Below are positions 11,545 through 61,140 of a DNA stretch of 64,000 bases, piece by piece (position 1 is the stretch's first letter; each line of letters opens with the position of its first letter). The notes beneath the pieces were generated by a model. The model searched no databases. It saw only the letters and a list, made by a program, of their open reading frames with translations, and was not told where the DNA came from. The position numbers were made by a program, and so were the translations under genes. The stretch covers positions 134,588 through 198,587 of the forward strand of contig CAVYTU010000006.1 of NCBI GenBank assembly GCA_963771465.1, written 5' to 3'. The stretch is from an uncultured delta proteobacterium (GTDB lineage Bacteria; Desulfobacterota; Binatia; UBA9968).

Positions 11545-11698
11545 CTTGCAGGCTGCTCTAAAAGATTTAGAGGCGAGTCGCAGACCTAAAAGGATAAGGG
11601 ATAACGGATAAAGGATAAAATTTAGGATTACTTTTATCACTTATCCTTTCGCCTTTAACCTTTTCCCTGTCGGTGGTTCTTTTTCAGCGGCCTGCTAG
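11545..11698. mobile_element. MITE-like element with imperfect terminal inverted repeats
   Basis: Left end CTTGCAGGCTGCTCTAAAAGA matches the reverse complement of the right end, CTAGCAGGCCGCTGAAAAAGA. 154 bp, non-coding, between convergent genes. Confidence 0.5.
11591..11668. repeat. Tandem-repeat hairpin A: (NGGATAA)x4 ... (TTATCCT-like)x5
   Basis: aggataa gggataa cggataa aggataa - aatttaggattact - ttatcac ttatcct ttcgcct ttaacct tttccct. Confidence 0.8.
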
Positions 11699-11747
11699 CG
11701 GATTCGCCTCTGGCCAACGCGCTGCCGCACGCGAGCCACTCAATGAG

Positions 11748-12674
11748 TTAGCTTGCTTTTTCCAATGCATCGTTCCAACCGAACTTTTGCCGCGGTCCAC
11801 CCAGCAGCGCGAGGAAGTCGAGCGCGTTGTGAGATAGCGGCCGGCCCTTGCGGTAAACGATAAAAGATTTGCCGTTGATTCTTCTTAATCCGGCGATTCT
11901 CAGCGTTTTCAGTGAACCGGCTTCGAGCTCCGATTCGACCTGATCGTGGTACAGTATTCCGATGCCCATCCCCTTCATCACGGCGGTCATTATCGCCTGG
12001 CCTGACTCACACTCCATCAGGATGTTGAGCCTGAATCCTTGGCTCTCGATGTGTCTGAGGACATCGGAAGGTTTACCTTGCCGTCCCTTCTTGATGATCA
12101 ACGGTGCCTGGGCGACTTCAGCCAAGCTCAATTCGAATTTCTTGGCTAACGGATGTTTGGCGGAAACAACAACAACGACGTTCTCTTCGCGACAAGGCAA
12201 GATCTGCAGCAAGGGGGATTTTGAAGGATTGGTGATTACGCCGATTTCGATCTGAGATTGGAGTACTAACTGCTCTATTCCGCGGCTCCTTTTGGTGCGA
12301 AAGATGATTTGCGTGTGGGGATGACTTTCTTTGAACCGCGCCAAAAGGGAGGGAATAAGAGCCGCTGAAGGAGCGTGGGAGCCGCCGACCGTGAGCGAGC
12401 CGCCAGTCAGTGGCGGCGCCGCTTGCTTGAATCTTTGGCCAAGTCGCTCGACGCGCAGCAGAATTTCTCGGACGTCGGCCTGGACGAGATGTCCTTCTCG
12501 CGTTAGCTCGATCTGTCTACCGACCTTTCGGTAGAGCCGAACACCGCAGAAGTCTTCCAGTGATTTCACCTGCTTGAAAACCGACGGTTCGCTGATGTCT
12601 AGCGACTCTGCCGCTCTTGTAATGTTGAGATATTTTGAGACCGCCGCGAATGCCCGGATCTGATTGAGTGTCAT
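11748..12674 (-). CDS. LysR-family transcriptional regulator
   Basis: N-terminal HTH MTLNQIRAF..NITRAAESLDISEPSVFKQVKSLE..LTREG followed by a substrate-binding domain. Divergent from the hydrolase pair. Confidence 0.92.
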   Translation of the reverse strand: MTLNQIRAFAAVSKYLNITRAAESLDISEPSVFKQVKSLEDFCGVRLYRKVGRQIELTREGHLVQADVREILLRVERLGQRFKQAAPPLTGGSLTVGGSHAPSAALIPSLLARFKESHPHTQIIFRTKRSRGIEQLVLQSQIEIGVITNPSKSPLLQILPCREENVVVVVSAKHPLAKKFELSLAEVAQAPLIIKKGRQGKPSDVLRHIESQGFRLNILMECESGQAIMTAVMKGMGIGILYHDQVESELEAGSLKTLRIAGLRRINGKSFIVYRKGRPLSHNALDFLALLGGPRQKFGWNDALEKAS

Positions 12675-12870
12675 AACTTCACCATTTGTCTCACATGGGT
12701 TGTTGTACCGACCACCCCGAACGTGGTTACTCCCGCAGCGGATAGAAATCAATAGCCTCCAAGATATAGCAGCAGTTGATGAATGAATATTGGACAGAGC
12801 TGCCGGGAATCAAGTAAGAAGCGTAACGCTCTTAAGCGCCAATAAGACAATTTCGCACCGGAGGATTCCT

Positions 12871-14374
12871 ATGAATCGACTTATCGTCAGGCCGTTATCG
12901 GGATTGACGTTCGCTTTGCTGGCGACAGTGGCATTGGTCTCTACCGCCGCGGCGCAGCTCCAGCCGACCACCAATGTCGTCGTCACCGCGAATCTCAACA
13001 CCGGCGGGCAGACCAATGTCAATGCGGCACGTTTGCGTCGGCCGACCACCAATGTGCTGGCCAAGGCGCATATCGGTGTTTTCGTTATGCACCCGTCTTC
13101 GGGTTATCAGAACAACGGTGTGTGCAATGCCTTGGCCCAACGTGGTTTTACAACAGTGTGCGCTGACAGCGTATTTAACGGGAACGACAACGGTTACTAT
13201 GGCTACGAGCAGCATGCACCGGGAATACGGGCGGGCATCAACTATCTAAGAAGCATCACGGCGACAGCAACCCTGCCGGCAGTTTCCAAAGTGCTTATCT
13301 TCGGCCATAGCATGGGCGCGCCGATGATGGCGTTTTATCAAAACGTCGCTGAAAACGGCGCGGCGATCGCTTGCCAGGGAGCCGAGAAAATCCTCCCTTG
13401 CGTCGATACCAATTTACAGAACCTCCCAAAAGCTGACGGCGTAATGTTGTTCGATGCTCATTTAGGCGATGGATTGGCGACGTTTACTTATGTCGATCCG
13501 GCTCTCAGCAACAATATTTTTTCTTGCGAGCCGCGCAAGCTCCAAAACGATATGTTCACCGCCGCCAATGGCTATATTCGCAATCCCGGCCAATTGGACG
13601 ACAACGGCGCGACCTATTCCAAGCAGTTCAAAAAGACTTTCCTGGTGCATCAAGCCGTGCGCAACGAAGATCTCATCGAAGTGGCGCTCGATCTACTGCA
13701 GCAAAGGAGAATCCAAACCGGCAATCCCAATGACCTGGGCGATGCCATTCCGTTCGTCGTGCCCGGCTCCGATGGCGCGCGTCTCTTTCAGCCGGACACA
13801 AGTCTGCTCAAATATACCAAGAAGAAGCACATACTTTTGGCTCGGGATGGAACTCGTCCCGTGCAAATCATCCAATCGGTTCGGCCGCCGTCAGGCAATC
13901 TCGACGCTTTGGACTGCGATGCCTCGACGCGCGAGGTCAATGTTCATATTTGGCTGGGCTCGAGAGCCTTGCGCGCCACGCCCGGCAAATACAGCCAAAC
14001 ACCGGACGATATCACAGGCATTGACTACGACTCGTCGGCCACCAGCAGCGTTACCAACGTCAAAGGAGTCGGTAAGCATCCCAACGGCAGTCAGGCGACG
14101 ACGCCACTTGCTGATCATTGCCAACACCGGCCACTATTTTCTCCGGCCCGACGAGATCGTTTACGACAATGCCTACAGCACGGATAAGACCTTGGCATTT
14201 TCGGAAGGGGCGGTCCACGGCGGCGGCCCGTGCGCGCAATGCACTCGCATCATCTTAAATGATCCGGCCTTGGCGACGGCAACGGCAAACGCATATTGGA
14301 CGGATCCTGCCGGCAACGGGCCGGCAGAAAGATCTTGGAACTTCATGGCCGAATGGCTGAGTGCGAGGTACTAG
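12871..14374 (+). CDS. Exported alpha/beta-hydrolase, +1 frameshift near 14107 (sequencing error or pseudogene)
   Basis: Signal peptide and GHSMG nucleophile elbow. The C-terminus LLIIANTGHYF..TDK..EGAVH continues in the next frame and aligns with the downstream paralog. Confidence 0.75.
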
Positions 14375-14452
14375 GCGCCGCTACGATCGAGTCGAGTGGT
14401 TCAAGAATTGAATTTAATAATTGTGATTTTTTTTGAGAGGAAGGAATTCATC

Positions 14453-15766
14453 ATGACCGCAATAAAGTTTTCCCTGATATTTAGTTTGCTACTGGTTCTC
14501 TCCGTGCCGGCGACGTTCGCTCAGACGACCACGGACCTTGATTTGGGTGGCGGAGCGCTGGGGCGTTATCGGACGCCGGCAGGTCAGATGTCAAATATCG
14601 CGTTCATCGCGATTCATCGCACCGGAGATTACCGCAACCACGCTTCGACAACGCAGTTGCAGAGCCGCGGCTTCGCCACTCTCGGCATAAGGACTAGATT
14701 CGGTAGTAGCGAAGCCGCTGTGAACTGGGAGCTCATTGCTTTGGATATTCGAAGCGCCGTTCGCTTCCTTAGAAATCAGCCGGGAATTACTAAAGTCGTG
14801 CTGATCGGTCACAGCGGCGGCGGCCCGAGCACGTCGTATTACCAAGCGCTTTCGGAAAATGGTCCTTCGTATTGCCAAGGGGCTAACAAATTAGTTGAGT
14901 GCTCCTTTTCAGAGACCGATTTCCTGCCCTCGGACCGGGCCGATGGGATGGTATTTGTAGAGGCGCACTTAGCGAACGGCATCAATCGGTTGCGGGCGTT
15001 GAACCCTTCCGTGGTCAATGAAGACCAACCCTTTGGTCCCGCGCGTAACAAGACTCTCGATCCCTTTGACCCTAAGAATGGCTACAATCCCAATGGCGAC
15101 TCTGCCTATTCTCAGCATTTTGTCGATACCTACGCGCGCGGGGAGTCGAGACGCATGAATGGTCTGATCCACGATGCTCTTCAAATTAGACACGAAATAG
15201 AACTTGGCCTGCGTGATCCGGCCGATGACGCGTTTGTTTTCTGGCGCGACAGCGCGCGGTTGTCGCAACTTAGCACGGGCGTCCAATGTTGCACTTTCAA
15301 TCCAACTCGATTGATCCAGAATAGCGGTGCCATCGCTAACCCGCAGATCATTCATACGGTGCGAGTTCCTGAGCCGAGCATTAAGGATGATGACGAAGGA
15401 GAGGATGGCAGACAAGACTTGAAAATCACCTCGTTCTTGAGCGCTAATGGTATAAGATCCAATCACTCGTACGACAGCATCGATTGGTGTTCGAGCAACA
15501 ATTCAACGATCTGCGCAGTTCGGACGATCTCGGTGCCGGCTGTGGTGATAGCGGCGCAAGGGCATTACTTTATTCGCGACGGCGAGCAGATCTTTGAAGA
15601 GTTGGCGAGCACCGACAAAGAATTTCTCGTCATCGAAGGGATGAACCACAATCTCGGCAATTGTACGGCCTGCGCGACGTTTCACGGCACCGGCCCTTAC
15701 ACAAATATTCCATTGAATCTGTGGAACTATGTTGCAGCTTGGGCGAATGCGCATATTGGGAACTGA
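14453..15766 (+). CDS. Exported alpha/beta-hydrolase (paralog of the upstream gene)
   Basis: Signal peptide, LIGHSGGG, YQALSENG..CQG, GHYFIRD..STDKEF..EGMNH. Confidence 0.8.
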   Translation: MTAIKFSLIFSLLLVLSVPATFAQTTTDLDLGGGALGRYRTPAGQMSNIAFIAIHRTGDYRNHASTTQLQSRGFATLGIRTRFGSSEAAVNWELIALDIRSAVRFLRNQPGITKVVLIGHSGGGPSTSYYQALSENGPSYCQGANKLVECSFSETDFLPSDRADGMVFVEAHLANGINRLRALNPSVVNEDQPFGPARNKTLDPFDPKNGYNPNGDSAYSQHFVDTYARGESRRMNGLIHDALQIRHEIELGLRDPADDAFVFWRDSARLSQLSTGVQCCTFNPTRLIQNSGAIANPQIIHTVRVPEPSIKDDDEGEDGRQDLKITSFLSANGIRSNHSYDSIDWCSSNNSTICAVRTISVPAVVIAAQGHYFIRDGEQIFEELASTDKEFLVIEGMNHNLGNCTACATFHGTGPYTNIPLNLWNYVAAWANAHIGN

Positions 15767-15784
15767 CGACGAGGCCAAGCAGCG

Positions 15785-15807
15785 ATCTCCGAGCGAAATC
15801 GAGGGAC
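15785..15807. repeat. REP-like short palindromic motif (TCCGAGCGAAATCGAGGGA)
   Basis: Similar to TCCTGAGCGCAGGCGAAGGA at 30121-30145. Confidence 0.35.
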
Positions 15808-15861
15808 TTTCTAAGTGGAATATGAATCGGCGAGCGGCGTCATGATCACCACTGGATTGCG

Positions 15862-16330
15862 TCAGTTTTTTAGGGCAAGGTCCGCGATCGTCTTGCGGTA
15901 GCTTATGGTGAGGGCGCCTGCACCCGCAAGGACCGCGTTCATACGTCCCTTGGATGCAGCACGGAATGCGCTTTCGAAATTCGGGTTAGGAGCTTGCAGT
16001 TCCATCGATTGAAGTTGAATTTTTAAGGCGCGCGCTGCAGCCTCGTAGTAAGTAAAACTGCTTCCCGTTGTCTGGCGCCTCTCATCCGAAAGGACGCCAA
16101 CGCGCGATATTCGCGGCACCTCCTTTAGCAACTGCAGCCGCTTTCCGCTTAGCTATGGGGTGCGTCGGGTGAGACCCGTGATATTTCCCCGGGCTGCTAG
16201 GCTATCGATTAGCCCAGCCGCGACTAGATCAGCAGTGGTGATCATGACGATGGGAATCGTTTTGGTCACCTCTTTCGCCGCACAAACTCCTCGTATAGTT
16301 CCGGAAACAATCACGTCGACTTTTAGCGAC
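15862..16330 (-). pseudogene. Fragmented ABC_sub_bind-type substrate-binding protein
   Basis: Fragments LKVDVIV..AAKEVTKTIPIVM..DLVAAGLIDSLA.RGNITGLT and LKEVPRISRVGVL..AARALKIQLQ..FESAFRAA lie in different frames; both ends are truncated. Confidence 0.8.
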
Positions 16331-16481
16331 CTCGGAGCCGAAGTAAATCTGCCCGCGCTCAAGAAATGGCTCCCAGCCGTTTCTCGATTGTAATTTCCGA
16401 ATTTAGAATAATCGACGTGCTTTTCAGTCGCGATTTTGATTAAGATGTTTTCGCTAAAAGATTCAGAAAGGGGATTTTGGT

Positions 16482-17048
16482 ATGGCAGACATTGCACCGC
16501 AAAAAATCGCCGTAATCATTCTCGATATGGCCAAAGGGTACGGCTGGAAGCCCGGCAGTTTCGGCTACGATATGGTGGCGCAGGTGCGCCAGCTCAAAGA
16601 CGCAGCGTACGCCGCCGGCGCGCAGGTGATTCACGTCAATAGCATGCGCCGCCCGACGGACCACGTCAATGAAAACTCTCGCATGATGGTGGGAAGCGAA
16701 GGGCTTGAAGTGATCGCGGAGCTCCAGCCGATCGACAAAGACATCATAGTCTACAAGCGCTACTTGAGCGGCTTCTCGCACAACGATCTGGACTACACGC
16801 TCAGAACGATGGGTTGCGAGACGGTAATCGTAGCCGGAGCGTCGACCGACAATACCGTGCTTTGGACCTGTGCCGACGCTCATCAGAACCGCTACAAAGT
16901 TGTGGTGGTCGAGGACTGCACGATTGTCCATCGCGAGAAGGAGCCGCCGGGAGCCAAGGAGGGCGCGCTGCGAATTATCCGCAACGTTTTGAAAGGCGAG
17001 GTGTTGCCGTTAGCAGCGATCAAAGACAAATACCTCAAACCAAAATGA
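16482..17048 (+). CDS. Isochorismatase/cysteine-hydrolase family protein
   Basis: Motifs AVIILDM, YKRYLSGF, LDYTLR..AGASTDNTVLWT.ADA, VVVVEDC. Confidence 0.85.
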   Translation: MADIAPQKIAVIILDMAKGYGWKPGSFGYDMVAQVRQLKDAAYAAGAQVIHVNSMRRPTDHVNENSRMMVGSEGLEVIAELQPIDKDIIVYKRYLSGFSHNDLDYTLRTMGCETVIVAGASTDNTVLWTCADAHQNRYKVVVVEDCTIVHREKEPPGAKEGALRIIRNVLKGEVLPLAAIKDKYLKPK

Positions 17049-17162
17049 ATCACGCACCGTCCTCAAGCATGGCGGTAACGGTTGTCATCCTTCCATCCTG
17101 ACATAATCACGTTGCCGTTACTCCTGTTATAATCACTTTGCTACAACACCGAGATCAAAACC

Positions 17163-17191
17163 TTGACAACATCCAGCTCGCTAACTAGTGT
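17163..17191 (+). promoter_or_regulatory. Candidate sigma70 promoter for the MEDS-kinase operon
   Basis: TTGACA-17 nt-TAGTGT. Confidence 0.45.
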
Positions 17192-17324
17192 GATAGCAGT
17201 TGAAACGAGTTTCGTCGCTTGCTTCTACTGAGGACCGCTACTGTCAGCGGTCACCTCCTATTAAGACTCCGCTATTAGCGGCCGACGGACCCGCGATGGC
17301 AAACAATTAATTGGAGGAATAGCA

Positions 17325-18128
17325 ATGAATCATGAGCTTGAAGCGGACAGTCAGCCTTGGCACCCACTTTTGACCAACGCGGCACCGCGCGATCACATCG
17401 TACAGCTTTACCAGGATCAAGACTTTCTCAATCGCGCTGTCTGTCGGTTCGCGGCCGCTGCGCTCGCGAACGGCGAGGGTTTGATCCTGGTGCCGACGAG
17501 CGCCCACTGGAATGCCTTCCGCCCTCGGCTGGAGGCTGGAGGCGTGGATGTCAAGGCGGCACAGGAGCGCGGCCAGCTAACCGTCGTTGACGCCGATGAG
17601 TTGCTGCCAAGCTTCATGCGCGAAGCCATGCCCGACGCGCCGGTGTTCCTCGGCGTAGCGGCGGACGTCATCACACGGGCCCGCGGAGCGGGCCATTACC
17701 CGAAAGTGCGCTGGTGGGGCGAAATGGTCAATGTCCTTTGGGAGCGCGGGGACGTAGCCGGCAGCATGAGCCTCGAGGATCTGTTCGATCAGCTCGGCCA
17801 CGAGCAGGAGGTGGCGATCTTCTGCTCGTTTGTAATGGATAACTTCAACGGCGAGATGCACACTCGCATGCTGCCAAGGCTCGGGGAGAACCACTCTCAC
17901 TTGATCCCGGTGGAAGATTATGCGCGGCTCGAGCGTGCCGTAGCCGAAGCTCTGCGCGAGACAGTCGGCTCGGTCGAGGCCTCTGTCCTCGAAGGGCAGC
18001 TCCTCTCGCGCTATCCGGCGTCGTTCCAGATGCCGCGACCTCAGGCGCTGCTCTTGGCATTGCATCAGGCTCTGCCGGCTGTAGCTGACGCCGTGCTGCA
18101 ACGGAGTCGTACTTTGTACGAAGCTTAG
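17325..18128 (+). CDS. MEDS (DcmR-like sensory) domain protein
   Basis: HIVQLY, AALANGEG, GQLTVVDA, VRWWGEMVNVLW..LEDLFDQL, IFCSF, HSHLIP. GGAGG RBS. Confidence 0.8.
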   Translation: MNHELEADSQPWHPLLTNAAPRDHIVQLYQDQDFLNRAVCRFAAAALANGEGLILVPTSAHWNAFRPRLEAGGVDVKAAQERGQLTVVDADELLPSFMREAMPDAPVFLGVAADVITRARGAGHYPKVRWWGEMVNVLWERGDVAGSMSLEDLFDQLGHEQEVAIFCSFVMDNFNGEMHTRMLPRLGENHSHLIPVEDYARLERAVAEALRETVGSVEASVLEGQLLSRYPASFQMPRPQALLLALHQALPAVADAVLQRSRTLYEA

Positions 18129-18142
18129 AACGTGCCAGATCG

Positions 18143-29195: not shown

Positions 29196-29274
29196 CACCA
29201 CGAAGGCACGAAGGACACGAAGGTTTTGAAAAAACTCAATTCCGAACTTCGTGCTCTTCGTGTTCTTCGTGGTG
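29196..29274. repeat. Tandem-repeat hairpin B: 9-nt unit (CACGAAGNN) arms, ATTCCGAA core
   Basis: caccacgaaggcacgaaggacacgaagg...attccgaa-cttcgtgctcttcgtgttcttcgtggtg. Confidence 0.85.
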
Positions 29275-37184: not shown

Positions 37185-38306
37185 ATGAAGTTAGTAGCGC
37201 TGCTGGCAGTCGTTGCGTGCTTTTTTTCTGATCCGGTCGTCGCACAAATGCAAGGATTTCGCGGCGCTCCCGGCGGCAATCACGGCAGTGGATCGATTCA
37301 ATCGTCATCCCCCGCGACTCAGCCCCGCCAAGGATTCGCCAACGGCCAGGTCGGGAATTCCATAACCCAGAGAACCTGGTCAACGCCACAGGGAACCCAG
37401 GTTCAGCCAGCAGCACCGATCAGCGCGCCACGGACCAGCGCAAATCCAAACCACCTCGGCGGAGCGATCGTCGCGCCCACTCCGGTGCATCCGCAGAGAA
37501 CCTGGTCAACGCCGCAGGGAAACCATGTTCAGCCGGCACCACTGGTCATCGCGCCCAGGATAATTTCTAATCCGCACCACCGCGGCGGTGCGTTCGTTGG
37601 GCCGCAGCGGGTGCACCGCCGGCCCACGTTAGCGATCGTCGGCGTCGTGCCGCACCATCACCACCGGCCGTGGTTTTTTAATCGGTTTCCCATAGCTACT
37701 ATCGTCGAATGGCCTTACGCCTACTCGCCTACCGTGATTACCCAAATTGCCCCTGGCGTCATCAGCGCGTCACCGCGTTACGCCGAAGAACCGCCGAGCG
37801 AAGCAAGAACGAGAAGCCCAGAACAATTGGCGCCCTTCGATCCGACGCCGCAGGAAGTGGTCGCGCGCATGCTGCAGTTGGCCAATTTGAAATCGAGCGA
37901 CGTGCTCTACGATCTCGGCGCCGGCGACGGCCGGGTCGTGATTGCTGCGGCAAAGAAGTACGGTATCCGAGCTGTCGGCTACGAGATCGATCCGGGGTTG
38001 GCGAAGTTAGCGCGTGAAAACGCGCGCCAAGCGGGCGTGGAGCGATTGGTCGAAATCCGCGAGCAAGACTTTCTCACGGCGGACTTATCGAGCGCATCGG
38101 TGGTGACGCTTTACTTGTCTTACGACGGCAATCTCGCGCTGCGGCCGCAACTCATGAGGCAGCTCAAGCCGGGCGCGCGCATCGTCTCCTATACTTTTGA
38201 CATGGGCGAGTGGCAGCCGAAGATAAGCGAAACCTATCGCGACGCCGGCGGGGATGCACACGCAATTTACTTCTGGCAAATCGGTGACACGATTGCTTTC
38301 CGTTAG
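37185..38306 (+). CDS. SAM-dependent methyltransferase with signal peptide and repeat-containing disordered N-region
   Basis: Start MKLVALL behind GGAGG; C-terminal APFDPTP..ML, LYDLGAGDGR, GYEIDP, VVTLYL, LKPGARIVS. Confidence 0.8.
   Translation: MKLVALLAVVACFFSDPVVAQMQGFRGAPGGNHGSGSIQSSSPATQPRQGFANGQVGNSITQRTWSTPQGTQVQPAAPISAPRTSANPNHLGGAIVAPTPVHPQRTWSTPQGNHVQPAPLVIAPRIISNPHHRGGAFVGPQRVHRRPTLAIVGVVPHHHHRPWFFNRFPIATIVEWPYAYSPTVITQIAPGVISASPRYAEEPPSEARTRSPEQLAPFDPTPQEVVARMLQLANLKSSDVLYDLGAGDGRVVIAAAKKYGIRAVGYEIDPGLAKLARENARQAGVERLVEIREQDFLTADLSSASVVTLYLSYDGNLALRPQLMRQLKPGARIVSYTFDMGEWQPKISETYRDAGGDAHAIYFWQIGDTIAFR
37368..37619 (+). repeat. Two tandem 126-bp (42-aa) intragenic repeats
   Basis: QRTWSTPQG..VQPA..APR..NP.H.GGA.V.P..VH starting at 37368 and 37494. 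Confidence 0.8.
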
Positions 38307-39456: not shown

Positions 39457-39505
39457 GTTCAAAACGTTCAAGTCGTTCAAGCGTTCCGCTCCGTTCCAAA
39501 TCGTT
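39457..39505. repeat. Single-arm 8-10-nt tandem repeat (CGTTCAA-based)
   Basis: gttcaaaac gttcaagtc gttcaagc gttccgctcc gttccaaatc gtt. Confidence 0.6.
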
Positions 39506-40250
39506 AGAAATCCCTTTTACCCGTGTTCCACTCCTGGGCTTTGATTACTTTCCCTGTAATTGTCGGTTGATCTTGCCCGGCCAAATGCAGCACCAGCGGC
39601 ACCACGACTTCAGGGGCTTGGCCGCCGCGGCCGTCGACATTCACTCTGCCGCCGGGATGGATCGCGTTGGCGCTGATGCCGTGTGGCTGCATTTCCTTGG
39701 CAACGGTTTTCATCAAGCCCTCGACGGCGTGTTTTGAAGCGACGTAGGCGCATTTGCCGGCGACGCCTTGGTGGCCGGCGTTGGATGAGATACCGATGAT
39801 CACGCCGTGCTTCTGCTTGATCATGTGCGGTAAGGCGAAATGCGTGCAGAGATAAGCGGCGCGCAGATTCACTGCCATGAGCAGATCCCAATCGCTCACT
39901 GGCACTTCGTGGGTCGGCCTTTGACGCAAGCAGCGCCAGTCCTCGTAGACGCCGTCGTCGTGCACTTCCATGCGCAAGCCGGCGTTGTTGATCAGTATGT
40001 TAAGGCGGCCGAATTTCGCCGCGCAGAAATCGACTAATTGCCGCGCGGAAAACTCCTGGCTCAAGTCGCCGGCAAAAGTTTCCGCCGTTCCAGCTTGCGA
40101 GGTAATTTCTTGCTGCACTTTGCGGGCGTGCTCTTCGCGCACGTCGGCGAGCATGACTCGTGCGCCTGCGCTGGCGAGCCCGAGCGCCATGGCGCGGCCA
40201 AGACCTCTGCCGGCGCCGGTGACGATGGCGACTTGCTCGGCGATGTTCAT
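39504..40250 (-). CDS. SDR family oxidoreductase
   Basis: TGAGRGLG, NNAG, YVASK. Confidence 0.92.
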   Translation of the reverse strand: MNIAEQVAIVTGAGRGLGRAMALGLASAGARVMLADVREEHARKVQQEITSQAGTAETFAGDLSQEFSARQLVDFCAAKFGRLNILINNAGLRMEVHDDGVYEDWRCLRQRPTHEVPVSDWDLLMAVNLRAAYLCTHFALPHMIKQKHGVIIGISSNAGHQGVAGKCAYVASKHAVEGLMKTVAKEMQPHGISANAIHPGGRVNVDGRGGQAPEVVVPLVLHLAGQDQPTITGKVIKAQEWNTGKRDF

Positions 40251-44844: not shown

Positions 44845-46683
<1,839 letters not shown>

Positions 46684-50982: not shown

Positions 50983-51066
50983 TTCACCACGAAGGACACG
51001 AAGAGCACGAAGTTCGGAATATTGATTATCTGAATCCTTCGTGTCCTTCGTGCTTTTCGTGGTGAA
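50983..51066. repeat. Tandem-repeat hairpin C: 9-nt unit arms, TTCGGAAT core (inverted relative of B)
   Basis: ttcaccacgaaggacacgaagagcacgaag-ttcggaat...ccttcgtgtccttcgtgcttttcgtggtgaa. Confidence 0.85.
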
Positions 51067-51122
51067 TAAATCAGTTTGAACCTTACACCTTGTCGAAACA
51101 AACGTCTGAAGACCGGCACACC

Positions 51123-51848
51123 ATGATTCGCCTTGGCATCAACGTCGATCACGTAGCGACCTTGCGCCAGGCGCGCGGCATCGACGTGCCCGATCCGGTT
51201 GCGGCCGCATTGCTTGCGGAAAAGGCCGGCGCGGACGGCATTACGGTGCACCTGCGCGAAGATCGGCGCCATATTCAGGAGCGCGATGTAAAACTTTTGC
51301 GCCAGCGGGCGCGGAGCAAGATCAATCTCGAAATGGCGCTGACGCCGGCGATGGTCAAGTTCGCCGCAAAGCTTCGTCCGGACGACGCTTGCTTCGTGCC
51401 GGAGAAACGCCAGGAGCTCACCACCGAAGGCGGTCTGGATATCGTCGCGCACAAGCAGAGAGTCAAAGACGCCGTCGCCAGGCTGGACGATCGCGGCATT
51501 CACGTCGCGTTGTTTATCGATCCGGTGAAGGCGCAAATCGATTGTGCCAAAGAAGTCGGCGCCCACGCCATTGAGATTCATACCGGAAGTTACTGCAACG
51601 CGACGGGCGCGAAACGCGAGAAGGAGCGGCGCGTAATCGCCGCCGCGGCGAAACTGGCGCAAAGCTTCGGCTTGGAAGTGCATGGCGGCCATGGGCTCAA
51701 TTACGATAACGTCAGACCGATCGCGAAGATTCCCGAGATGGTCGAGCTCAACATCGGTCACAGCATCATCGCCCGGGCGCTCTTTGTCGGCATGGAGCGA
51801 GCGGTGCGCGAGATGAAAGAATTGCTCGATCGTGCTCGTGGCTCGTGA
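51123..51848 (+). CDS. pdxJ: Pyridoxine 5'-phosphate synthase
   Basis: [40 protein letters not shown]. Confidence 0.97.
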
Positions 51849-51913
51849 TCGTGTCGGTTTCGGAATCTGAATATCTGTTGGAGTATCTCACGCACACGAA
51901 TAACGAACACGAA
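51830..51913. repeat. Tandem-repeat hairpin D: 6-nt unit (TCGTGN / CACGAA), TTCGGAAT core; overlaps the pdxJ stop
   Basis: tcgtgc tcgtgg ctcgtga tcgtgt cggt-ttcggaat...cacgca cacgaa taacgaa cacgaa. Confidence 0.7.
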
Positions 51914-51930
51914 TAAGATTTCGATCCGTC

Positions 51931-53487: not shown

Positions 53488-53540
53488 GCTCGAATTCTTC
53501 CGAAAAATATACTAGTTGTACTGCAGAGGCCCGTTTAACC

Positions 53541-54020
53541 ATGGGTTTGTGTACGGTTGTTTCTAAGTCAGCGCGCCAAACCATGAGTTGGGGCAAAAAA
53601 TTAGGGAAGCTAATTCAAGGCGGTGAAATTATTGGCCTTGTCGGTGAGCTGGGGGCCGGCAAGACCTGTTTCGTGCGGGGCTTCGCCGAAGGCATCGGGG
53701 TTGGCAAAGACGCCTGGGTGCGCAGCCCGACCTTTACTCTGATCAACGAATACAACGGCCGTCTGCCCGTCTATCACATCGACCTCTATCGGGTTGGCGA
53801 GCGCGCCCAGCAGGACGGGCTCAATCTGCGCGAGTATCTGTACGGTGACGGCGTTAGCTTGATCGAGTGGTTTGAGTATCTTCCCGCCGACGAAGTCGAC
53901 GAGTTTTTAGAAATCACTATGGCGCATCTCGGCGGCGCCAAGCGGGAGCTGAAGTTTAGCGCGCATGGGAAGCGGTACGAGAGTTTATTGAAAGATTTAC
54001 ACTTGGAGACAGCTAAGTAA
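53541..54020 (+). CDS. tsaE: tRNA t6A biosynthesis ATPase TsaE
   Basis: [23 protein letters not shown]. Confidence 0.95.
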
Positions 54021-54113
54021 TTTTGGATTTTAGATTTTGGATTGGGGGAGCCGAGGGACCAATCTGAATTCCGATTCCGACAATCCAAAATCGGCAATCC
54101 GAAATCCAAAATT
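54019..54113. repeat. Tandem-repeat hairpin E: 7-nt unit (ATTTTGG / AATCCAA), ATTCCGATTCCGA core
   Basis: aattttggattttagattttggattg...attccgattccga-caatccaaaatcggcaatccgaaatccaaaatt. Confidence 0.85.
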
Positions 54114-54131
54114 GGTTGCGGGGTCATTTGC

Positions 54132-55343: not shown

Positions 55344-55351
55344 AGGATTCC

Positions 55352-56932
55352 ATGAAAGATGTTTTACTTTACGATACGACATTGAGAGACGGCTGTCAGG
55401 CCGAGGACGTTTCATTCACGCTTGAAGATAAACTTCGTATCGCTGCGAAGCTTGAAGAACTCGGCATCGATTACATCGAAGGCGGCTATCCCGGCTCCAA
55501 CTCGCGCGATGCCGACTTCTTCACTCAAGTAAAGAAGTTGAAACTCAAGCACGCCAAGGTGGCGTCCTTTGGCACGACCCGAAAATTCGGCGCCAAACCG
55601 TCGCAAGACATTAATTTGAAAGTATTGCTCCAGGCTGACACACCGGTGGTCACGTTGGTGGGCAAGACTTGGGATCTCCACGTGCGCGACGATCTGCGCA
55701 TCAGCCAAAAGGCCAATTTGGAACTGATTGCCGATTCCATCGCGTACATGAAAAAGCGCGTCGATGAAGTGATATTCGACGCGGAGCATTTTTTCGACGG
55801 CTTTCGCGCCAATCCGGAGCACGCCATCGATTGTCTCAAAGCGGCCCAAGAAGGTGGCGCCGATTGGATCGTGCTCTGCGAAACCAATGGCGGGCGGCTG
55901 CCCGGCGATATTCGCGACGCGCTCAACCACGTCAATCGCGCGATCAAGACGCCCCTCGGCATTCATTGCCACAACGACGGCGAACTGGCGGTAGCCAACA
56001 CCATGGCCGGCGTCGAGATGGGCGTGACTCAAGTCCAGGGCACCATCAACGGTTTTGGCGAGCGCTGCGGCAACATGAATTTGATCTCCATCATCGGCAA
56101 CTTGCAGCTCAAGATGGGCAAGAAGTGCGTGACGGCGGCGCAACTCAAAAAATTGCGCGAGGTGTCGCAGCTATTCTACGAGTTGGCCAATATCCATCCG
56201 AACAAACGCCAGGCCTACGTCGGTGACAGTGCCTTTGCCCATAAAGGCGGCTTGCATGTTTCCGGCGTGCTTAAGAACCGCGAGACCTATGAGCATATCG
56301 ATCCCGACTTGGTTGGCAACCGCCAGCGCGTGTTGGTGTCCGACCTCTCCGGGCGCAGTAACGTGGTCTACAAAGGCAAGGAGTACGATATCGATCTGAA
56401 AGACAAGGGCGACGCGGTGAAAGATATCTTGCGCCGGACTAAGGAACTTGAAAGCCAGGGCTTCGAGTTCCAAGCGGCGGAAGCGTCGTTTGAGCTGTTG
56501 ATTCAAGAAGCGCTGGGCAAGAAGAAGAAAAACTTTCAGCTGATCGGCTTTCGCGTCATCGACGAAAAGCGCAAGGAAGGCGAAGCGCCGATCTCGGAAG
56601 CGACGATTCAAGTGCAAGTGGACGGCGTGTTGGAGCACGCCGCGGCAATGGGCAACGGCCCGGTGAATGCGCTCGATCAGGCGCTCAGGCGCGCGCTGAC
56701 GAAATTCTATCCCGCGCTCAAGCAAGTGGAGTTGCTCGACTACAAGGTCCGCGTGTTGTCCTCCGGCGAAGGCACCGGCGCGGTGGTGCGCGTATTGATC
56801 GAATCGGGCGACGGCAAGGAACGCTGGGGCACGGTCGGCGTATCGCACAACGTGATCGAGGCGAGCTGGCAAGCGTTGGTCGACAGCATCGATTACAAGC
56901 TTTATAAGGACGCGAGACATCGGGCGAATTAA
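55352..56932 (+). CDS. cimA: Citramalate synthase
   Basis: YDTTLRDG.Q, GKTWDLHV, FDAEHFFDG, HCHND, AFAHKGG, NVIEASWQAL. Confidence 0.93.
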   Translation: MKDVLLYDTTLRDGCQAEDVSFTLEDKLRIAAKLEELGIDYIEGGYPGSNSRDADFFTQVKKLKLKHAKVASFGTTRKFGAKPSQDINLKVLLQADTPVVTLVGKTWDLHVRDDLRISQKANLELIADSIAYMKKRVDEVIFDAEHFFDGFRANPEHAIDCLKAAQEGGADWIVLCETNGGRLPGDIRDALNHVNRAIKTPLGIHCHNDGELAVANTMAGVEMGVTQVQGTINGFGERCGNMNLISIIGNLQLKMGKKCVTAAQLKKLREVSQLFYELANIHPNKRQAYVGDSAFAHKGGLHVSGVLKNRETYEHIDPDLVGNRQRVLVSDLSGRSNVVYKGKEYDIDLKDKGDAVKDILRRTKELESQGFEFQAAEASFELLIQEALGKKKKNFQLIGFRVIDEKRKEGEAPISEATIQVQVDGVLEHAAAMGNGPVNALDQALRRALTKFYPALKQVELLDYKVRVLSSGEGTGAVVRVLIESGDGKERWGTVGVSHNVIEASWQALVDSIDYKLYKDARHRAN

Positions 56933-56937
56933 GGGGA

Positions 56938-57016
56938 AGGCAGTAGGCATTAGGCAACAGGCATATCCGGAATTCGTACTCCGATACTATCGCCTAATGC
57001 CTCTTGCCTAATGCCT
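56938..57016. repeat. Tandem-repeat hairpin F: 7-nt unit (AGGCANN / NNTGCCT), TCCGGAAT...TCCGA core
   Basis: aggcagt aggcatt aggcaac aggcata-tccggaattcgtactccgat...gcctaat gcctctt gcctaat gcct. Confidence 0.85.
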
Positions 57017-57023
57017 GGCCGCC

Positions 57024-57758
57024 ATGTGGCAATCGATTAAAGAAGATTTCAAAGTTATCGCTCAGCGCGATCCGGCGTTGCGCTCGGTGTGGGAGATTGC
57101 GCTCGCTTATCCCGGATTTCACGCCATCGTGCTGCACCGCTGGGCGCATTGGCTGTGGGGTCGGAAGCTGACCACGCTGGCGCGTTTTGTGAGTCACGTT
57201 GGACGATTTATTACCGGCATCGAAATCCATCCCGGTGCGACGATCGGCCGGCGCTTTTTTATCGATCATGGCATGGGCGTGGTGATCGGTGAAACCGCCG
57301 AGATCGGCGACGACGTAACGCTCTACCAAGGTGTCACTCTCGGCGGCACCTCGACGCAGCGGATCAAGCGCCATCCGACGATCGAAGATTCGGTCACCAT
57401 TTTTAGCGGTGCGGCGGTGCTCGGGCCGGTGACGGTGGGCCGCCATAGCCGCATCGGCGCCGGTTCGGTGCTCGTGACCTCGGTGCCGGCACATTCGACC
57501 GTGGTCGGTATTCCCGGCAGGATCGTCAAGAGCGAAGCGCAGCATACCGAGACGGGCAAGGCGATTATCGATCTCAACGCCGCCGATCTACCCGATCCGG
57601 TCACCAAGGCGTTTAGCGCTTTGGGCGACTATATGGAAAAGTTGGAAAAGAAAGTCGACGAACTGAGCGCGCGCCAGGGCGGGTTAGAAGAAAAAACCGC
57701 CGAAGAAAGTGAAGCGCTCAATAAGATCAAAGAGCTGTTGCGGAATGCGGGAAGCTGA
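57024..57758 (+). CDS. cysE: Serine O-acetyltransferase
   Basis: [36 protein letters not shown]. Confidence 0.95.
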
Positions 57759-57761
57759 AAA

Positions 57762-57805
57762 AGGCGTGAGGCTTGAGGCAACAGCTGCGAGCCGGATTCG
57801 CTCGC
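57762..57805. repeat. Partial element G: 7-nt unit (AGGCNTG) arm plus small hairpin with CGGAT loop
   Basis: aggcgtg aggcttg aggcaac ag; gcgagc-cggattc-gctcgc. Confidence 0.5.
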
Positions 57806-57824
57806 CATCAATCAGCGATTACAC

Positions 57825-58887
57825 ATGACTTCGAAGAGAACCAAAATTGTCGTCGCCATGAGCGGCGGCGTCGATAGCTCGGTGAGCGCGGCACTGCTGG
57901 TGGAGCAGGGCTATGACGTGCACGGCGTGTCGCTGCGCATGTGGGAAGGCGAGCGCGGGCCGCGGGTCTGCTCGGATCATCGCGGCGCGGAGGAAGTCGC
58001 CGCGCATCTCGGCATTCCCCACACGTTGCTCGATTTGCGCGGGCAATTTGCCGAGACCGTGGTCAAACCGTTCGCGCAAGATTATCTGCGCGGCCGCACG
58101 CCCAATCCCTGCATCGCGTGCAATCGTGATTTCAAACTCGGCACGTTGCTGCGCTGGGCCAAGGAGCATGACGCGGAGTACGTCGCCACCGGTCATTACG
58201 CCAACATCATTCACGGCCAGAACGCCGAGCGTGTGGCGCTGCTGCGCGGGGCGGATCGAAGCAAAGATCAGTCCTATTTTTTGTTCGCCTTATCGCAGGA
58301 ACAACTGGCGCACACTATGTTTCCGCTCGGCGAGCATGCAGAAAACCGATGTGCGCGAGAAAGCCCGCGCCCTCGGATTGCCGGCGGCGGAACGTCTAGA
58401 GAGTCAGGATATTTGCTTCGGTGATTACAAAGCTCTGGTGGCGAGCTACGCCGAAGAGAGCGAGCTTCAAGGCGGCGAGGTCGTTGACCGCGGCGGTAAA
58501 GTGCTTGGCCAGCATGGCGGCGTGCACACGGTTACCGTCGGCCAGCGACGTGGCTTGGGTATTTCAGCCACGGAACCGCTTTACGTCGTCGACATCGACG
58601 AGCAGGCCAAGCGCGTCGTTGTCGGTAAGAAAAGTGAATTGAGCTCCGGCGGGCTGATCGCGCGTTCGGTCAATTGGCTCGAAGAGCCGGATGCAGAAAT
58701 TAGCGCTGAAGTGCAGATTCGTTACCGTGCGCCCGCGGTCCGGTGCAGGATTCGACCGGAATCCAATGGAACCTGCGAAGTCCGTTTCGCCGAGGCGTTT
58801 CCGGCGGTGACGCCGGGCCAAGCGGCGGTGTTTTACCGCGGCGATCAAGTGTTAGGCGGGGGATGGATTGAGCGCGCGCTGCGCTAG
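57825..58887 (+). CDS. mnmA: tRNA-specific 2-thiouridylase, +1 frameshift near 58335
   Basis: AMSGGVDS, TPNPC..CN, ATGHY, KDQSYFL, FPLG; continues MQKTDVR..ESQDICF..TVGQRRGLG..PGQAAVFY in the next frame. Confidence 0.92.
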
Positions 58888-58900
58888 CGCAGCGCACGCG

Positions 58901-58976
58901 ATTACAAATTCTAGATTACAAATTGCAAATTTCGGATTCCGAAAAATCTGGAATCTGTAATTTGTAATTGGGAATT
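58901..58976. repeat. Tandem-repeat hairpin H: 7-nt unit (ATTACAA / TTGTAAT), TTTCGGA-T-TCCGAAA core
   Basis: attacaa attctag attacaa attgcaa a-tttcggattccgaaa-a atctgga atctgta atttgta attggga att. Confidence 0.85.
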
Positions 58977-58991
58977 TTACGAAGTGAAGAC

Positions 58992-60335
58992 ATGAGAATC
59001 GCGATTACCACGTTCGGTTGCAAGATCAACCAATATGATTCGGCGGTGATTCAGAACCGTTTGGAAGGGAATCATTCGTTCGTACCCTTCGACGAGCATG
59101 CCGATTGCTACGTGATCAACACTTGCACGGTGACCGACCGCGCCGATTGGGAGGCGCGCCAACTGGTGCGCCGCGCTAAGCGTTTGAATCCAGCGGCGAA
59201 GGTTGTCGTTACCGGTTGCTATGCGCAGGTCAATCCCGACGAGGTGGCGGGTGTCGCCGGCGTCGATGTCGTCGTCGGCCTCAATCGCTTGGACGATCTT
59301 TTAGGTTTCGTCGCCGCGCCGATGACCGGCGCAAGCCAGATCGCGGTGAGCGACGTGAAGCGCGAGCGCGGCGTGGCGGTGCTCGGTACGCGCGCGCTAC
59401 CGGGTCATACCCGGGCGTTTGTCAAAATCCAAGAAGGCTGCAACTACACTTGCACCTATTGCATCATTCCGACGGCGCGCGGCTTGAGCCGCAGCGTCGC
59501 GCCGGGCGCGGTGATGGAGCAGGTCAAACAACTTGCCGATGGCGGTTATAAGGAAATTGTTTTGACCGGTATCCATCTCGGCGGTTACGGCCACGATCTC
59601 AGTCCCAAAATCGACCTGACGGCCTTGGTGGAAATGATCGCTGCCAGCGGACTGATGGCGCGGTTGCGCTTGAGCTCGCTTGACCCGCGCGAGGTGCCGG
59701 ACCGATTGTTAGATCTAGTCGCCGGCTCCGACGTAATTTGCCCTCACTTGCATATTTGCGCTCAGGCGGGCGACGACTCGATTCTCAAGGCGATGCGGCG
59801 CAATTACGATACGGCGTACTATCGCGATTTACTTTCTCGTGTGCGCGAGCGGCTGCCCAACGCCGCGCTGGGAAGCGATATCATCGTCGGTTTTCCCGGC
59901 GAGAGCGACGCGCAGTTTGAAAATTCGCTGGAATATTTTGCTTCGCTGCCGTTAACCTACTTTCACGTTTTTCCGTATTCGTCGCGCCGTACTACGGCGG
60001 CGGCAGAGCTGCCGGACCCAGTGCCCCACGTGGTCAAGAAGTCGCGCAGCCGGCGCATGCGCGAGCTCGGCGGGCAGAAGAAGCTAGAATTCTACTCGCG
60101 CTTTCTCGGCCAACGAGCATCGGTGTTGCTCGAAGAAAAAATCCATCGTGCGAGCGGTACCCGGCGCGGCTTTACGCGCAATTATCTTTCGGTCGCCGTC
60201 GTCGATTGCGCCGAGTCCGCCAATCGAGAAATCAATGTAAGCCTGACGAACATTCGTAATGGTTGGTTGACCGGCGAAGTTGACCCTTGCGGCCGGGACG
60301 CGGATCGAATTACCGCACGGCCCGCCGTTAACTAG
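58992..60335 (+). CDS. mtaB: tRNA t6A methylthiotransferase MtaB
   Basis: TFGCKINQ, NTCTVT, TGCYAQ, radical-SAM motif CNYTCTYC, HVFPYS. Confidence 0.92.
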   Translation: MRIAITTFGCKINQYDSAVIQNRLEGNHSFVPFDEHADCYVINTCTVTDRADWEARQLVRRAKRLNPAAKVVVTGCYAQVNPDEVAGVAGVDVVVGLNRLDDLLGFVAAPMTGASQIAVSDVKRERGVAVLGTRALPGHTRAFVKIQEGCNYTCTYCIIPTARGLSRSVAPGAVMEQVKQLADGGYKEIVLTGIHLGGYGHDLSPKIDLTALVEMIAASGLMARLRLSSLDPREVPDRLLDLVAGSDVICPHLHICAQAGDDSILKAMRRNYDTAYYRDLLSRVRERLPNAALGSDIIVGFPGESDAQFENSLEYFASLPLTYFHVFPYSSRRTTAAAELPDPVPHVVKKSRSRRMRELGGQKKLEFYSRFLGQRASVLLEEKIHRASGTRRGFTRNYLSVAVVDCAESANREINVSLTNIRNGWLTGEVDPCGRDADRITARPAVN

Positions 60336-60349
60336 AGATTGAGCGCACT

Positions 60350-61042
60350 ATGAGCGCCGATACGCAACTGGAGCAACTGCAAAAATCGCTGGGCTATCGT
60401 TTCAAAGATCGCCCGCTGCTGTTGCGCTGCTTGACGCACGTCTCCTTCGAGCGGAAAAAGACCGACGGGCATAACGAAGTGCTGGAATTTCTCGGCGACG
60501 CGGTGCTCGATCTGGCGGTGAGCGATTTATTGATGCGCGAGAATCCGGACAAGAGCGAAGGCGATCTGTCGCGCATGCGCGCCGCGCTGGTGAATTCCAT
60601 TGTGCTGGCGGAAAAGGCGGCGGATCTCAACCTTGGCGCACTGCTCCGTCTCGGCAAAGGTGAAGAGCGCAGCGACGGGCGCAACAAGCCGTCCATCCTT
60701 GCCGGCGCTTTCGAGGCGTTGCTCGGCGGCATCTACCAGGACGGCGGCTACGAAGCGGCGCGCAATGTCGTCGAACGGTTTTTTCTCACCGATGTCTCGG
60801 GCAAACAGCTCGGCCAGCGGGATTACAAGACCCGGCTTCAGGAAATCAGCCAACTGCTGTTTCACTCGCCGCCGAGCTATCGAGTGGTCGCCGAGAGCGG
60901 GCCGGATCACGAAAAATTTTTCGTTACCGAAATCAGCGTCGGCGGCAAGGTGCTCGGCAAAGGCGAAGGCCGGAGTAAAAAGCAGTCCGAACAGGAAGCG
61001 GCGAAGCTAGCGCTCGTGGAGCTTCAGCGCGTCGGTAGTTAA
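60350..61042 (+). CDS. rnc: Ribonuclease III
   Basis: NEVLEFLGDAVL, FEALLG.IY.DGG, DYKT.LQE, dsRBD. Confidence 0.96.
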   Translation: MSADTQLEQLQKSLGYRFKDRPLLLRCLTHVSFERKKTDGHNEVLEFLGDAVLDLAVSDLLMRENPDKSEGDLSRMRAALVNSIVLAEKAADLNLGALLRLGKGEERSDGRNKPSILAGAFEALLGGIYQDGGYEAARNVVERFFLTDVSGKQLGQRDYKTRLQEISQLLFHSPPSYRVVAESGPDHEKFFVTEISVGGKVLGKGEGRSKKQSEQEAAKLALVELQRVGS

Positions 61043-61140
61043 TCGTCTCGTGCTCGTGTTCATGTTCGTGCTCGTGGCATCACTGGAATTGCGAGCCGCT
61101 ATTTCCGAAAGCGAGCACGACCACGAGCCACGAACACGAA
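61043..61140. repeat. Tandem-repeat hairpin I: 6-nt unit (TCGTGN / CACGAN), TGGAAT...TTCCGAA core
   Basis: tcgtgc tcgtgt tcatgt tcgtgc tcgtgg...ctggaat...atttccgaa...gcgagc acgacc acgagcc acgaac acgaa. Confidence 0.8.

Follow-up and report, generated by a model that had tools for sequence, protein, structure and literature searches.

Word-armed intergenic hairpins of an uncultured Binatia bacterium and their gene-bearing counterparts

Introduction

What are the short hairpins that stand, one after another, between the genes of a housekeeping operon in an uncultured delta proteobacterium of the class Binatia? The 64-kb stretch of contig CAVYTU010000006.1 that we analysed, here called the window (coordinates without a contig label are window positions; G000 is the genome that holds it), contains eight such elements, lettered A to I without G, six of them in that operon. 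Each is built of tandem copies of a short unit, or word, followed by a loop and by the same word in inverted copies. An initial annotation, made from the sequence alone, read them as one family with freely varying arms and a common TCGGA/TCCGA core in the loop, and proposed that one mechanism recognises this core, or else that the core is a site for a protein or nuclease on an RNA stem. It also suggested that genes for four-helix-bundle and GxxExxY proteins are often flanked by similar repeats, and that the hairpins could be their empty forms.

Here, we describe the gene-bearing cassettes that carry the same arms, the correspondence between arm word and encoded protein, a census of the gene-less copies and the exchange of words at orthologous junctions. 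We hold with moderate confidence that the hairpins are non-autonomous, REPIN-like forms of word-armed cassettes resembling the intervening sequences (IVSs) of 23S rRNA, spread with the help of a cognate protein. Rival explanations are weighed where the evidence that bears on them is given.

Gene-bearing cassettes and their proteins

In a full cassette, a word of 6-9 nt is repeated two to four times in tandem ahead of a single small gene, and the word returns in inverted form behind it. The gene encodes either a four-helix-bundle protein (PF05635/TIGR02436) or a GxxExxY (TIGR04256) protein, a predicted PD-(D/E)XK nuclease. Inverted word arms bracket all five PF05635 genes of G000 that score over the cut-off, as well as its one GxxExxY gene, so the suggested association holds for six of six cargo genes over the cut-off. 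The arm words of the six are GTTCAA, TCGTG, CTGAG, ATGGA, AAAATT and CACGAAG. CACGAAG recurs in window elements B and C (the arms of B being those of the GxxExxY cassette), TCGTG in D and I, and GTTCAA in a single arm at 39457. The ATGGA- and AAAATT-armed genes look frameshifted in the assembly.

Beyond G000, 60 cargo loci of the genus were fetched, two of which gave no hit; most of the 58 that were used have arms, as judged by eye. Among GxxExxY relatives from many phyla, a set retrieved with a CACGAAG-type query, 44 of 80 genes pass a strict arm test, against none of 71 controls.

The GxxExxY cargo keeps the nuclease motif and, according to a structure model with a pLDDT of 95, has a predicted PD-(D/E)XK fold. 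Residues D63, E73, K75, Q87 and Y91 are invariant in all 62 aligned relatives, and the best fold matches of the model are PD-(D/E)XK nucleases at middling scores (Cas4 SSO0001 with Z 7.6 and a root-mean-square deviation of 3.8 over 97 aligned positions; Hjc with Z 6.2). No solved relative was found by sequence, and Foldseek returned none at E 0.001. One four-helix cargo protein of the genus matches the Xcc0516 structure (PDB 2GSC, E 9e-14).

Two further loci of G000 deserve mention. A sixth PF05635 match, below the Pfam cut-off (C5:85118-85327), lies in a longer gene that has short repeats of another kind, found both upstream of the coding sequence and within it. At C7:32526-34200, arms with the GGATAA word of element A bracket a small open reading frame (ORF), winged-helix-like by eye, and more arms follow after two further small ORFs; these are possibly other cargo.

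Arm words follow protein clades

A protein was obtained from 83 of the 92 four-helix loci, and the arms of 79 were labelled by eye before the tree was built. In the tree of these 79 proteins, 15 of the 16 words with two or more members each mark a single clade (14 starred); GTTCAA is made paraphyletic solely by the nested GTTCCA. Sister clades carry related words, such as AGGC with RRGTRA and CAAATT with TGAGAT, and eight of the 16 words occupy two to six sites. The GxxExxY tree, with 82 of 129 rows labelled, requires 15 word changes, where 200 shuffles never needed fewer than 33, and places 41 of 43 CACGAAG proteins in one weakly supported clade that spans at least five phyla.

Judged from these trees, the arm word is a conserved, protein-linked feature that is kept across phyla together with its cargo clade. 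The pairing could come from linkage alone; that the protein recognises the word is our inference. The genus amounts to a natural code table of about 20 words, each matched to a protein clade.

Empty and full forms

The 58 genus loci allow full and gene-less states to be compared at the same place: 42 of them map to 13 junctions of G000, of which two are full and 11 gene-less in that genome. At least four of these 11 retain arm remnants by eye. At C14:398245 the very end of a four-helix gene survives with arm remnants, arm remnants stand at C15:814116 and C17:705169 where relatives are full, and one of the gene-less remnants bears a word other than that of the relatives. Elsewhere, the first GxxExxY codons are fused to a right arm (G241:C293), and a cargo gene fragment persists with its arms (C18:9883-9963). 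Both the deletion relics and the gene-less counterparts of full junctions support the suggestion that such elements are empty forms.

The empties far outnumber the full copies, by 30 to 1 for CACGAAG in G000. At unrelated sites and across genomes, CACGAAG empties have one loop length and one consensus, and their loops differ from the gene ends of the local full cassettes; it follows that the empties descend from one another. This bears directly on a simpler account, in which horizontally acquired full cassettes at gene ends lose their gene in place, the empties are immobile and the covariation of word and protein is mere linkage. Such an account draws on the clear deletion relics and on the arm remnants at gene-less junctions that relatives fill, and under it, too, more scars are expected in genomes that have, or once had, the cognate gene. 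It does not lead us to expect the uniform CACGAAG loops, nor the lack of any full cassette at 10 junctions of the window operon (24-30 relatives' genomes each) despite many switches of word, and we regard it as quite improbable.

Copy numbers differ greatly among congeners, with 0 to 165 overlapping matches for one family. The median number of CACGAAG matches per Mb is 6.6 in the 10 genomes with a CACGAAG-armed GxxExxY gene and 0.27 in the other 21 (p 2e-4), and TGGAGT matches per Mb are 6.9 in seven genomes with the cognate four-helix gene and 3.4 in 24 (p 0.016). Cross-tests in which the two words were swapped were not significant (0.14 and 0.20).

Genome census and placement

The initial annotation had proposed a scan of the genome for inverted tandem repeats. 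A word-based scan of G000 found 123 inverted tandem pairs that share at least two words and lie 3-90 nt apart, compared with 3 and 6 in displaced windows. Trained unit profiles found 211 non-overlapping elements in 11 unit families, compared with 5, 0, 2, 2 and 1 in controls. This census is a lower bound: of 20 seeded units, 11 gave a trained profile, and the nine others, including that of element A, lie outside it (GGATAA has two further gene-less members in G000). The families comprise GAGGAT (36 copies), CACGAAG and TGGAGT (30 each), ATGGA (21), GTTCAA and TCGTG (20 each), CAAATT (18), CGCAAAG (15), and TTTGGA, AGGCA and CTGAG (seven each), and there are 270 more strong unpaired arms. The arms are thus not free to vary, as had first been supposed; each unit is a constant family of its own, with up to 36 copies.

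Based on rough gene calls made in this analysis, 153 of the 193 best elements lie between tandem genes, 35 between convergent and three between divergent genes, with two inside genes, on a background of 2705 tandem, 540 convergent and 761 divergent gaps (4006 in all). With 188 of 193 in tandem or convergent gaps and only three in divergent ones, the elements evidently follow stop codons, and most of those in tandem context begin no more than about 20 nt from a stop codon.

Placement at gene ends raises the question of whether the hairpins simply arise there, by polymerase slippage and strand-switch inversion and with no element families at all. Slippage has been suggested for the excess of heptamers in a passage of PMC4692102, and the left arm of element D is indeed made of the last codons of pdxJ. 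Slippage does not account for the few words that turn up at hundreds of unrelated places and that accompany their cognate genes across phyla, and upstream gene ends are no closer to the resident word than to other words (p 0.09), a result that also speaks against gene-end likeness as a targeting cue. The words and loops that the elements have in common go most of the way to refuting a slippage origin, and we give it almost no credence.

Other properties of the elements were also recorded. A folding advantage of the sense strand was seen in 76 of 153 elements (p 0.53), that is, no strand bias. The trained units of G000 have no GGG runs. Facing linker bases avoid pairing in families of G000 (CACGAAG 1/26 vs 7.1, TGGAGT 1/28 vs 4.7, ATGGA 5/32 vs 10.0), which gives periodic internal loops; as a general trait these were rejected, since CACGAAG at other loci shows no avoidance (37/213 vs 26.1). 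The assembled contigs of two public RNA runs (share 0.32 and 0.10) contained no informative joint. Rod-like elements of 160-200 bp with CGAAAT-7 arms occur in G000 at C10:49124-49282, C14:1061991-1062195 and C15:60548-60708, with TCCGA in the left arm, opposite in polarity to the loop core described below. GC-rich palindromes that resemble repetitive extragenic palindromic (REP) sequences, and longer MITE-like pieces (MITE, miniature inverted-repeat transposable element), are often inserted in loops or beside arms (L016, L026, L029, L037 and G000).

Word switching at orthologous junctions

The consecutive junctions of the housekeeping operon glmM-pdxJ-nnr-tsaE-lysC-cimA-cysE-mnmA-mtaB-rnc-flavoprotein gene carry six elements and one single arm in G000. 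(The label nnr is ours, for an NAD(P)H-hydrate repair gene; the flavoprotein gene scores below all curated cut-offs.) The words found by eye at three of them in related genomes differ. At pdxJ/nnr, 30 genomes have GTTCAA types (16), TCGTG (nine), composites (three) or others (two). At cimA/cysE, 29 genomes have AGGCA (16), TGGAGT (10) or others (three), and at glmM/pdxJ, 28 genomes have none (17) or an element (10), with one unscored. Counted on a tree built from eight proteins of the operon, the minimum number of word changes is nine for pdxJ/nnr (25 genomes), six for cimA/cysE (26 genomes) and two for glmM/pdxJ (27 genomes), and the word changes even between the sisters G012 and G025. The unit switching that the initial annotation envisaged therefore does occur.

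At pdxJ, no co-conversion of the flanks was detected beyond 4-16 codons from the stop, and at cimA/cysE none at all. Since the flanking DNA, apart from the last pdxJ codons, is independent of the word, the replaced tract is little more than the element itself, about 100-130 nt. Lateral transfer of long junction alleles was considered and rejected, as the flanks give no signal of it. Nested and hybrid elements were found in G009, G020, G024, G026 and G028 and at C17:198727 of G000, and some hybrids have the core between unlike arms. The switching may in part reflect differential loss from a composite ancestor. Fast replacement at the junctions of a core operon, even recoding the last pdxJ codons, implies short-patch editing beyond any described element.

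A different reading is that the host selects the RNA stems. Any family would then serve at operon junctions, for RNase III processing, segmental mRNA stability or translation coupling; recombination between copies would swap the words, the cargo would be word-specific RNA-binding regulators or passengers, and the core would be a determinant for a host enzyme. This agrees with the near-constant presence of a stem at pdxJ/nnr and cimA/cysE while the word changes, with the 188 of 193 elements that follow a stop codon (three divergent, on a background of 761 of 4006 gaps) and with a core that is common to families yet lineage-specific, as described below. RNase III cleavage within the repeat-bearing stem of the 23S IVS, described in part of PMC4990558, is a precedent. 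The lack of a sense-strand folding advantage, the 17 of 28 genomes with no element at glmM/pdxJ, the burst-like range of 0 to 165 matches among congeners and a cargo family whose sequences point to a nuclease with an intact motif all argue the other way. On balance, we consider host selection unlikely, although it is the rival to which we give most weight.

Several minor features were seen at operon junctions of the relatives. At locus L023 (G020, glmM/pdxJ), the left arm of a CACGAAG element encloses a CGCAAAG-type element of 220 bp that has a small GC hairpin at its end; this longer subfamily has weak relatives in G000. At cysE/mnmA of L013, L016 and L025, an insert of 1.3-1.5 kb follows the left arm and contains a gene whose product looks like an ABC substrate-binding protein. 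In the relatives (L013-L052), the end of the right arm at pdxJ/nnr and cimA/cysE is often no more than a few bases from the start codon, and an obvious ribosome-binding site is absent there by eye.

The TCGGA/TCCGA core

Exact TCGGA or TCCGA, the loop motif proposed by the initial annotation, occurs in seven of the eight complete window elements; it is absent from element A and from both single arms, and GAGGAT, the largest family of G000, has it in one of 34 loops. Across G000, 68 of 189 loops have the core (193 elements minus four without a loop), compared with 10.6 (maximum 19) in length-matched intergenic sequence and 26.4 (maximum 37) in dinucleotide shuffles, so the expected enrichment over the intergenic background is present. 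With the CACGAAG family excluded, the count is 44 of 160, compared with 20.8 (maximum 31). The core is the top 5-mer of the loops and reaches at least 20% of loops in seven of 11 families. As a genome-wide repeat it was rejected (observed/expected 1.02 in intergenic and 0.81 in coding DNA), and outside the arms it shows no clear enrichment (9 and 5 of 193 vs about 4.7).

The core is also polarised: 72 of its 84 occurrences have TCGGA on the left-arm side or TCCGA on the right-arm side, and 12 the reverse, which indicates that it extends the stem inward. Near-match core pairs occur in 46 of 150 cases, compared with 5.5, and both exact halves in only 10 of the 68 core-bearing loops.

The picture changes outside this lineage. 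Among the matches listed, 142 loci of metagenome and viral origin with CACGAAG arms gave 131 distinct loops: 15 of the 19 loops whose flanks are at least 75% identical to G000 proteins have the core, compared with eight of the remaining 112, so that identical arms elsewhere enclose other loops. In the genus, TGGAGT loops have the core in 24 of 31 genomes, at variable positions, and TCCGA follows nine of 29 four-helix cargo genes, with no case of the opposite polarity; in other lineages, the core is found in 1-5 of 80 cargo flanks. The core is a lineage mark common to unrelated arm families and, being lineage-specific, not a general recognition signal. Most likely it is a host- or lineage-specific signal, or a homology patch, common to the families here and not a determinant of any family.

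These results bear on the mechanism first proposed, in which one enzyme recognises TCGGA/TCCGA and makes or moves elements with interchangeable arms. In its favour are the polarised top loop 5-mer (72 to 12) with an intergenic ratio near unity, the excess of near-match pairs, and the core's presence in TGGAGT loops (24 congeners of 31), beside genus cargo genes and in hybrids with unlike arms. The proposal is weakened by the identical arms that lack the core in other lineages (present in 8/112 loops among the matches listed and 1-5/80 cargo flanks), by the near absence of the core from the largest family, by its varying position in the loop and by arms that are tied to protein clades. We judge it very improbable.

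Two further ideas about the core were considered. A cUUCGg tetraloop was rejected: outside the CACGAAG family, a T precedes TCGGA in 23 of 52 cases. The core may be a relic of the cargo gene's start and stop, which fits the TCTGA seen by eye beside the right arm of CACGAAG cassettes; the stub pattern is found in none of the 131 metagenome and viral loops among the matches listed, and other families are left unexplained. Twenty viral contigs (L315-L334) bear hairpins with CACGAAG arms and are a possible route of transfer; the core is absent from all the distinct ones.

Comparison with known systems

The cassettes are closest to the 23S rRNA IVS. According to passages of PMC4990558, the Coxiella burnetii IVS has an S23p ORF preceded by two or three tandem heptamers, and a terminal stem of 28 bp within which RNase III cleaves; the IVS is a selfish element in transcribed DNA whose ORF decays. 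The five PF05635 full forms of G000, all outside the window, likewise have a four-helix gene within inverted repeats that form a long stem. Unlike the IVS, cassettes and empties stand after the stop codons of protein genes (no rRNA match was found in the window, where the elements lie between protein genes), their word families number at least 20, GxxExxY is a second kind of cargo, gene-less copies run into the hundreds, and elements replace one another at fixed junctions.

REP/REPIN-RAYT systems and MITEs with their insertion sequences consist of many short intergenic hairpins and few gene-bearing versions, in families that each have a cognate gene. G000 resembles the former in its 211 short intergenic hairpins, of which two of the best 193 lie inside called genes. 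It differs in that the arms are tandem words and that PF05635 and PF13366 genes are flanked, not Y1 (HUH) transposase genes; the nearest elements to its two PF01797 (Y1_Tnp) genes are 6.2 and 16.2 kb off. A REP repeat is a single palindrome beside a tetranucleotide of the GTAG/CGTC type; the arms here, as read directly from the sequence, are built of tandem words. As in MITEs, terminal inverted repeats enclose a non-coding core and are common with a gene-bearing partner; in contrast to MITEs, the partner genes belong to TIGR04256 and TIGR02436/PF05635 and not to the HUH or DDE transposases, and there is no target-site duplication. The introduction of PMC4692102 gives the general definition of REP and MITE.

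Short tandem repeats have also been described in cyanobacteria, as short tandemly repeated repetitive sequences, and in Xanthomonas and Nostoc as heptamers. Parts of PMC4692102 report 186 heptamer arrays of about four degenerate units in Xanthomonas (Xcc), 70 of them inverted pairs near the upstream gene, describe Xanthomonas GGGAATC and the Nostoc heptamers as G-quadruplex-type simple repeats of unknown function and state that heptamers lack detailed study. The intergenic, degenerate tandem units of G000 are similar, often being inverted pairs near the upstream gene. Those repeats are described with no link to cargo genes and with one word per genome, whereas the words of G000, 6-9 nt long, number at least 11 and include no G-rich unit of the quadruplex type among those trained.

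PF05635 is described as Avd-like in part of PMC10053308, and the match of the cargo protein to 2GSC recalls the Xcc0516 pentamer and Avd, the accessory protein of diversity-generating retroelements. Unlike those, the cargo genes stand alone inside their arms, and no reverse transcriptase was found in G000.

Homing endonuclease elements carry a small nuclease gene, are patchily distributed at fixed sites, are transferred horizontally, cleave the allele that lacks the insert and co-convert its flanks. The GxxExxY cassette alone is similar, with a predicted intact nuclease in a removable stem; in contrast to homing elements, no flank co-conversion was detected beyond the last pdxJ codons, most copies are gene-less and the gene of most families is not a nuclease. 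PF13366 is tabulated as unknown with multiple transfers in a section of PMC3424549, PF05635 genes occur inside cas loci according to a section of PMC3936711, and a bioRxiv paper on reverse transcriptases, in the part consulted, mentions GxxExxY in passing.

Rfam covariance models gave no match in the window at the gathering score. A literature search, with subscription journals and supplements outside its scope, found no account of a cassette-plus-empty system. The system is closest to IVS cassettes, works like a REPIN/MITE system with unusual partners and fits no tested family. It would be categorically new if protein-driven, word-coded mobility holds, which we regard as doubtful at present.

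A possible mechanism

The anatomy, the arms common to full and empty forms, the pairing of word and protein, the gene stubs, the placement right behind stop codons in transcribed DNA and the replacement were all observed. From these we infer recognition, cutting, copying, RNA processing and mobility as follows. Internal deletion of full cassettes would create empties, which would then be copied on their own. The cognate protein would recognise its own word on the folded stem, as RNA or extruded DNA, and act in trans. A nuclease would open a hairpin-bearing junction, either GxxExxY itself or a host enzyme recruited by the four-helix pentamer, and short-patch repair from another copy would write a new element into it. 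The long stem might be tolerated in operons if the host processes it or reads through, as RNase III does on the 23S rRNA IVS. The TCGGA..TCCGA inner stem, which was itself observed, is a lineage-specific addition to the cassette design.

A considerable number of observations weigh against spread by a cognate protein. No movement has been observed. The other eight of the 16 word-clades are confined to one orthologous site, so their link of word and protein may be descent only, and 36 of the 80 distant GxxExxY genes fail the strict arm test. We know of no catalytic activity for the four-helix proteins. No reverse transcriptase was detected in G000 (no PF00078/RVT_1 at E 0.001 in a genome 99% complete; divergent ones could escape), nor any target-site duplication: direct 4-, 5- and 6-mers occur in the flanks of 49, 14 and 2 of 193 elements, compared with 49.3, 11.5 and 2.5 when permuted, element ends being approximate. 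The link between cognate gene and copy number is lost under phylogenetic control at the present sample size (4:0 and about 3:0 among independent pairs, p 0.125 and 0.25), and CACGAAG and TGGAGT counts correlate with each other (rho 0.43). Individual genomes also fit poorly: G000 has no cognate gene for its large TGGAGT, GAGGAT, AGGCA, CAAATT and TTTGGA families, G006 has CACGAAG-armed GxxExxY genes yet three matches, and G020 has 63 CACGAAG matches without a clean cognate. Finally, the lack of a cargo gene at all 10 window-operon junctions counts here as well.

A stronger version of the cognate-protein reading is possible, and we offer it tentatively. The elements would form a selfish class free of transposase and reverse transcriptase, with a word code: each four-helix or GxxExxY subfamily would read its word and copy gene-less hairpins to the stop-codon side of genes, rivals would overwrite one another, and the core would be a shared point of entry or exchange. 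If true, this would provide a function for two very large uncharacterised protein families and an explanation of the excess of heptamer repeats in bacteria. PF05635/TIGR02436 and GxxExxY proteins are widespread and so far without a function, and their pairing with words enables tests of cognate against non-cognate combinations.

The window elements and their setting

Direct reading of the window located all eight elements at the places and with the units first described (Table 1). The two partial copies also exist, each as a single arm without a partner.

Table 1. Hairpin elements and single arms in the window
Feature	Position	Strand	Arms	Setting	Core and remarks
Element A	11589-11660	.	GGATAA-7, inverted tandem	Convergent genes, 10324-11460 (+) and LysR-family gene 11748-12752 (-)	
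Element B	29196-29274	.	CACGAAG-9	Between two + genes, ahead of ABC ATPase gene	TCCGA at 29241
Single arm	39457-39510	.	GTTCAA-9, no second arm		GTTCAA-typical loop segment
Element C	50983-51064	.	CACGAAG-9	glmM/pdxJ	TCGGA at 51014, paired with TCTGA
Element D	51830-51915	.	TCGTG-6/7	pdxJ/nnr; pdxJ stop ends at 51848	TCGGA at 51860
Element E	54019-54112	.	TTTGGAT-7	tsaE/lysC	TCCGA at 54070 and 54076
Element F	56938-57017	.	AGGCA-7	cimA/cysE	TCCGA at 56980
Single arm	57762-57815	.	AGGC-7, no right arm	cysE/mnmA	Small hairpin; no exact core
Element H	58901-58978	.	CAAATT-7	mnmA/mtaB	TCGGA at 58932 and TCCGA at 58938, a near-palindrome of 15 nt
Element I	61043-61140	.	TCGTG-6/7	rnc/flavoprotein gene, directly after rnc stop	TCCGA at 61104

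The window is dense in elements, with seven from the census plus A, compared with a mean of about two per 64 kb. Relative to base shuffles, folding z-scores are -4.0 to -9.3 for seven window elements and -1.9 for D; the single arms score +1.3 (39457) and -1.5 (57762).

Two further features of the window were noted. A frameshift of one base near 58335 divides the mnmA gene (57825-58887) in two; a contig from one of the RNA runs is one base shorter there, so this is probably an assembly error. At 37368-37619, a tandem duplication of 126 bp with a 78% match lies between two genes.

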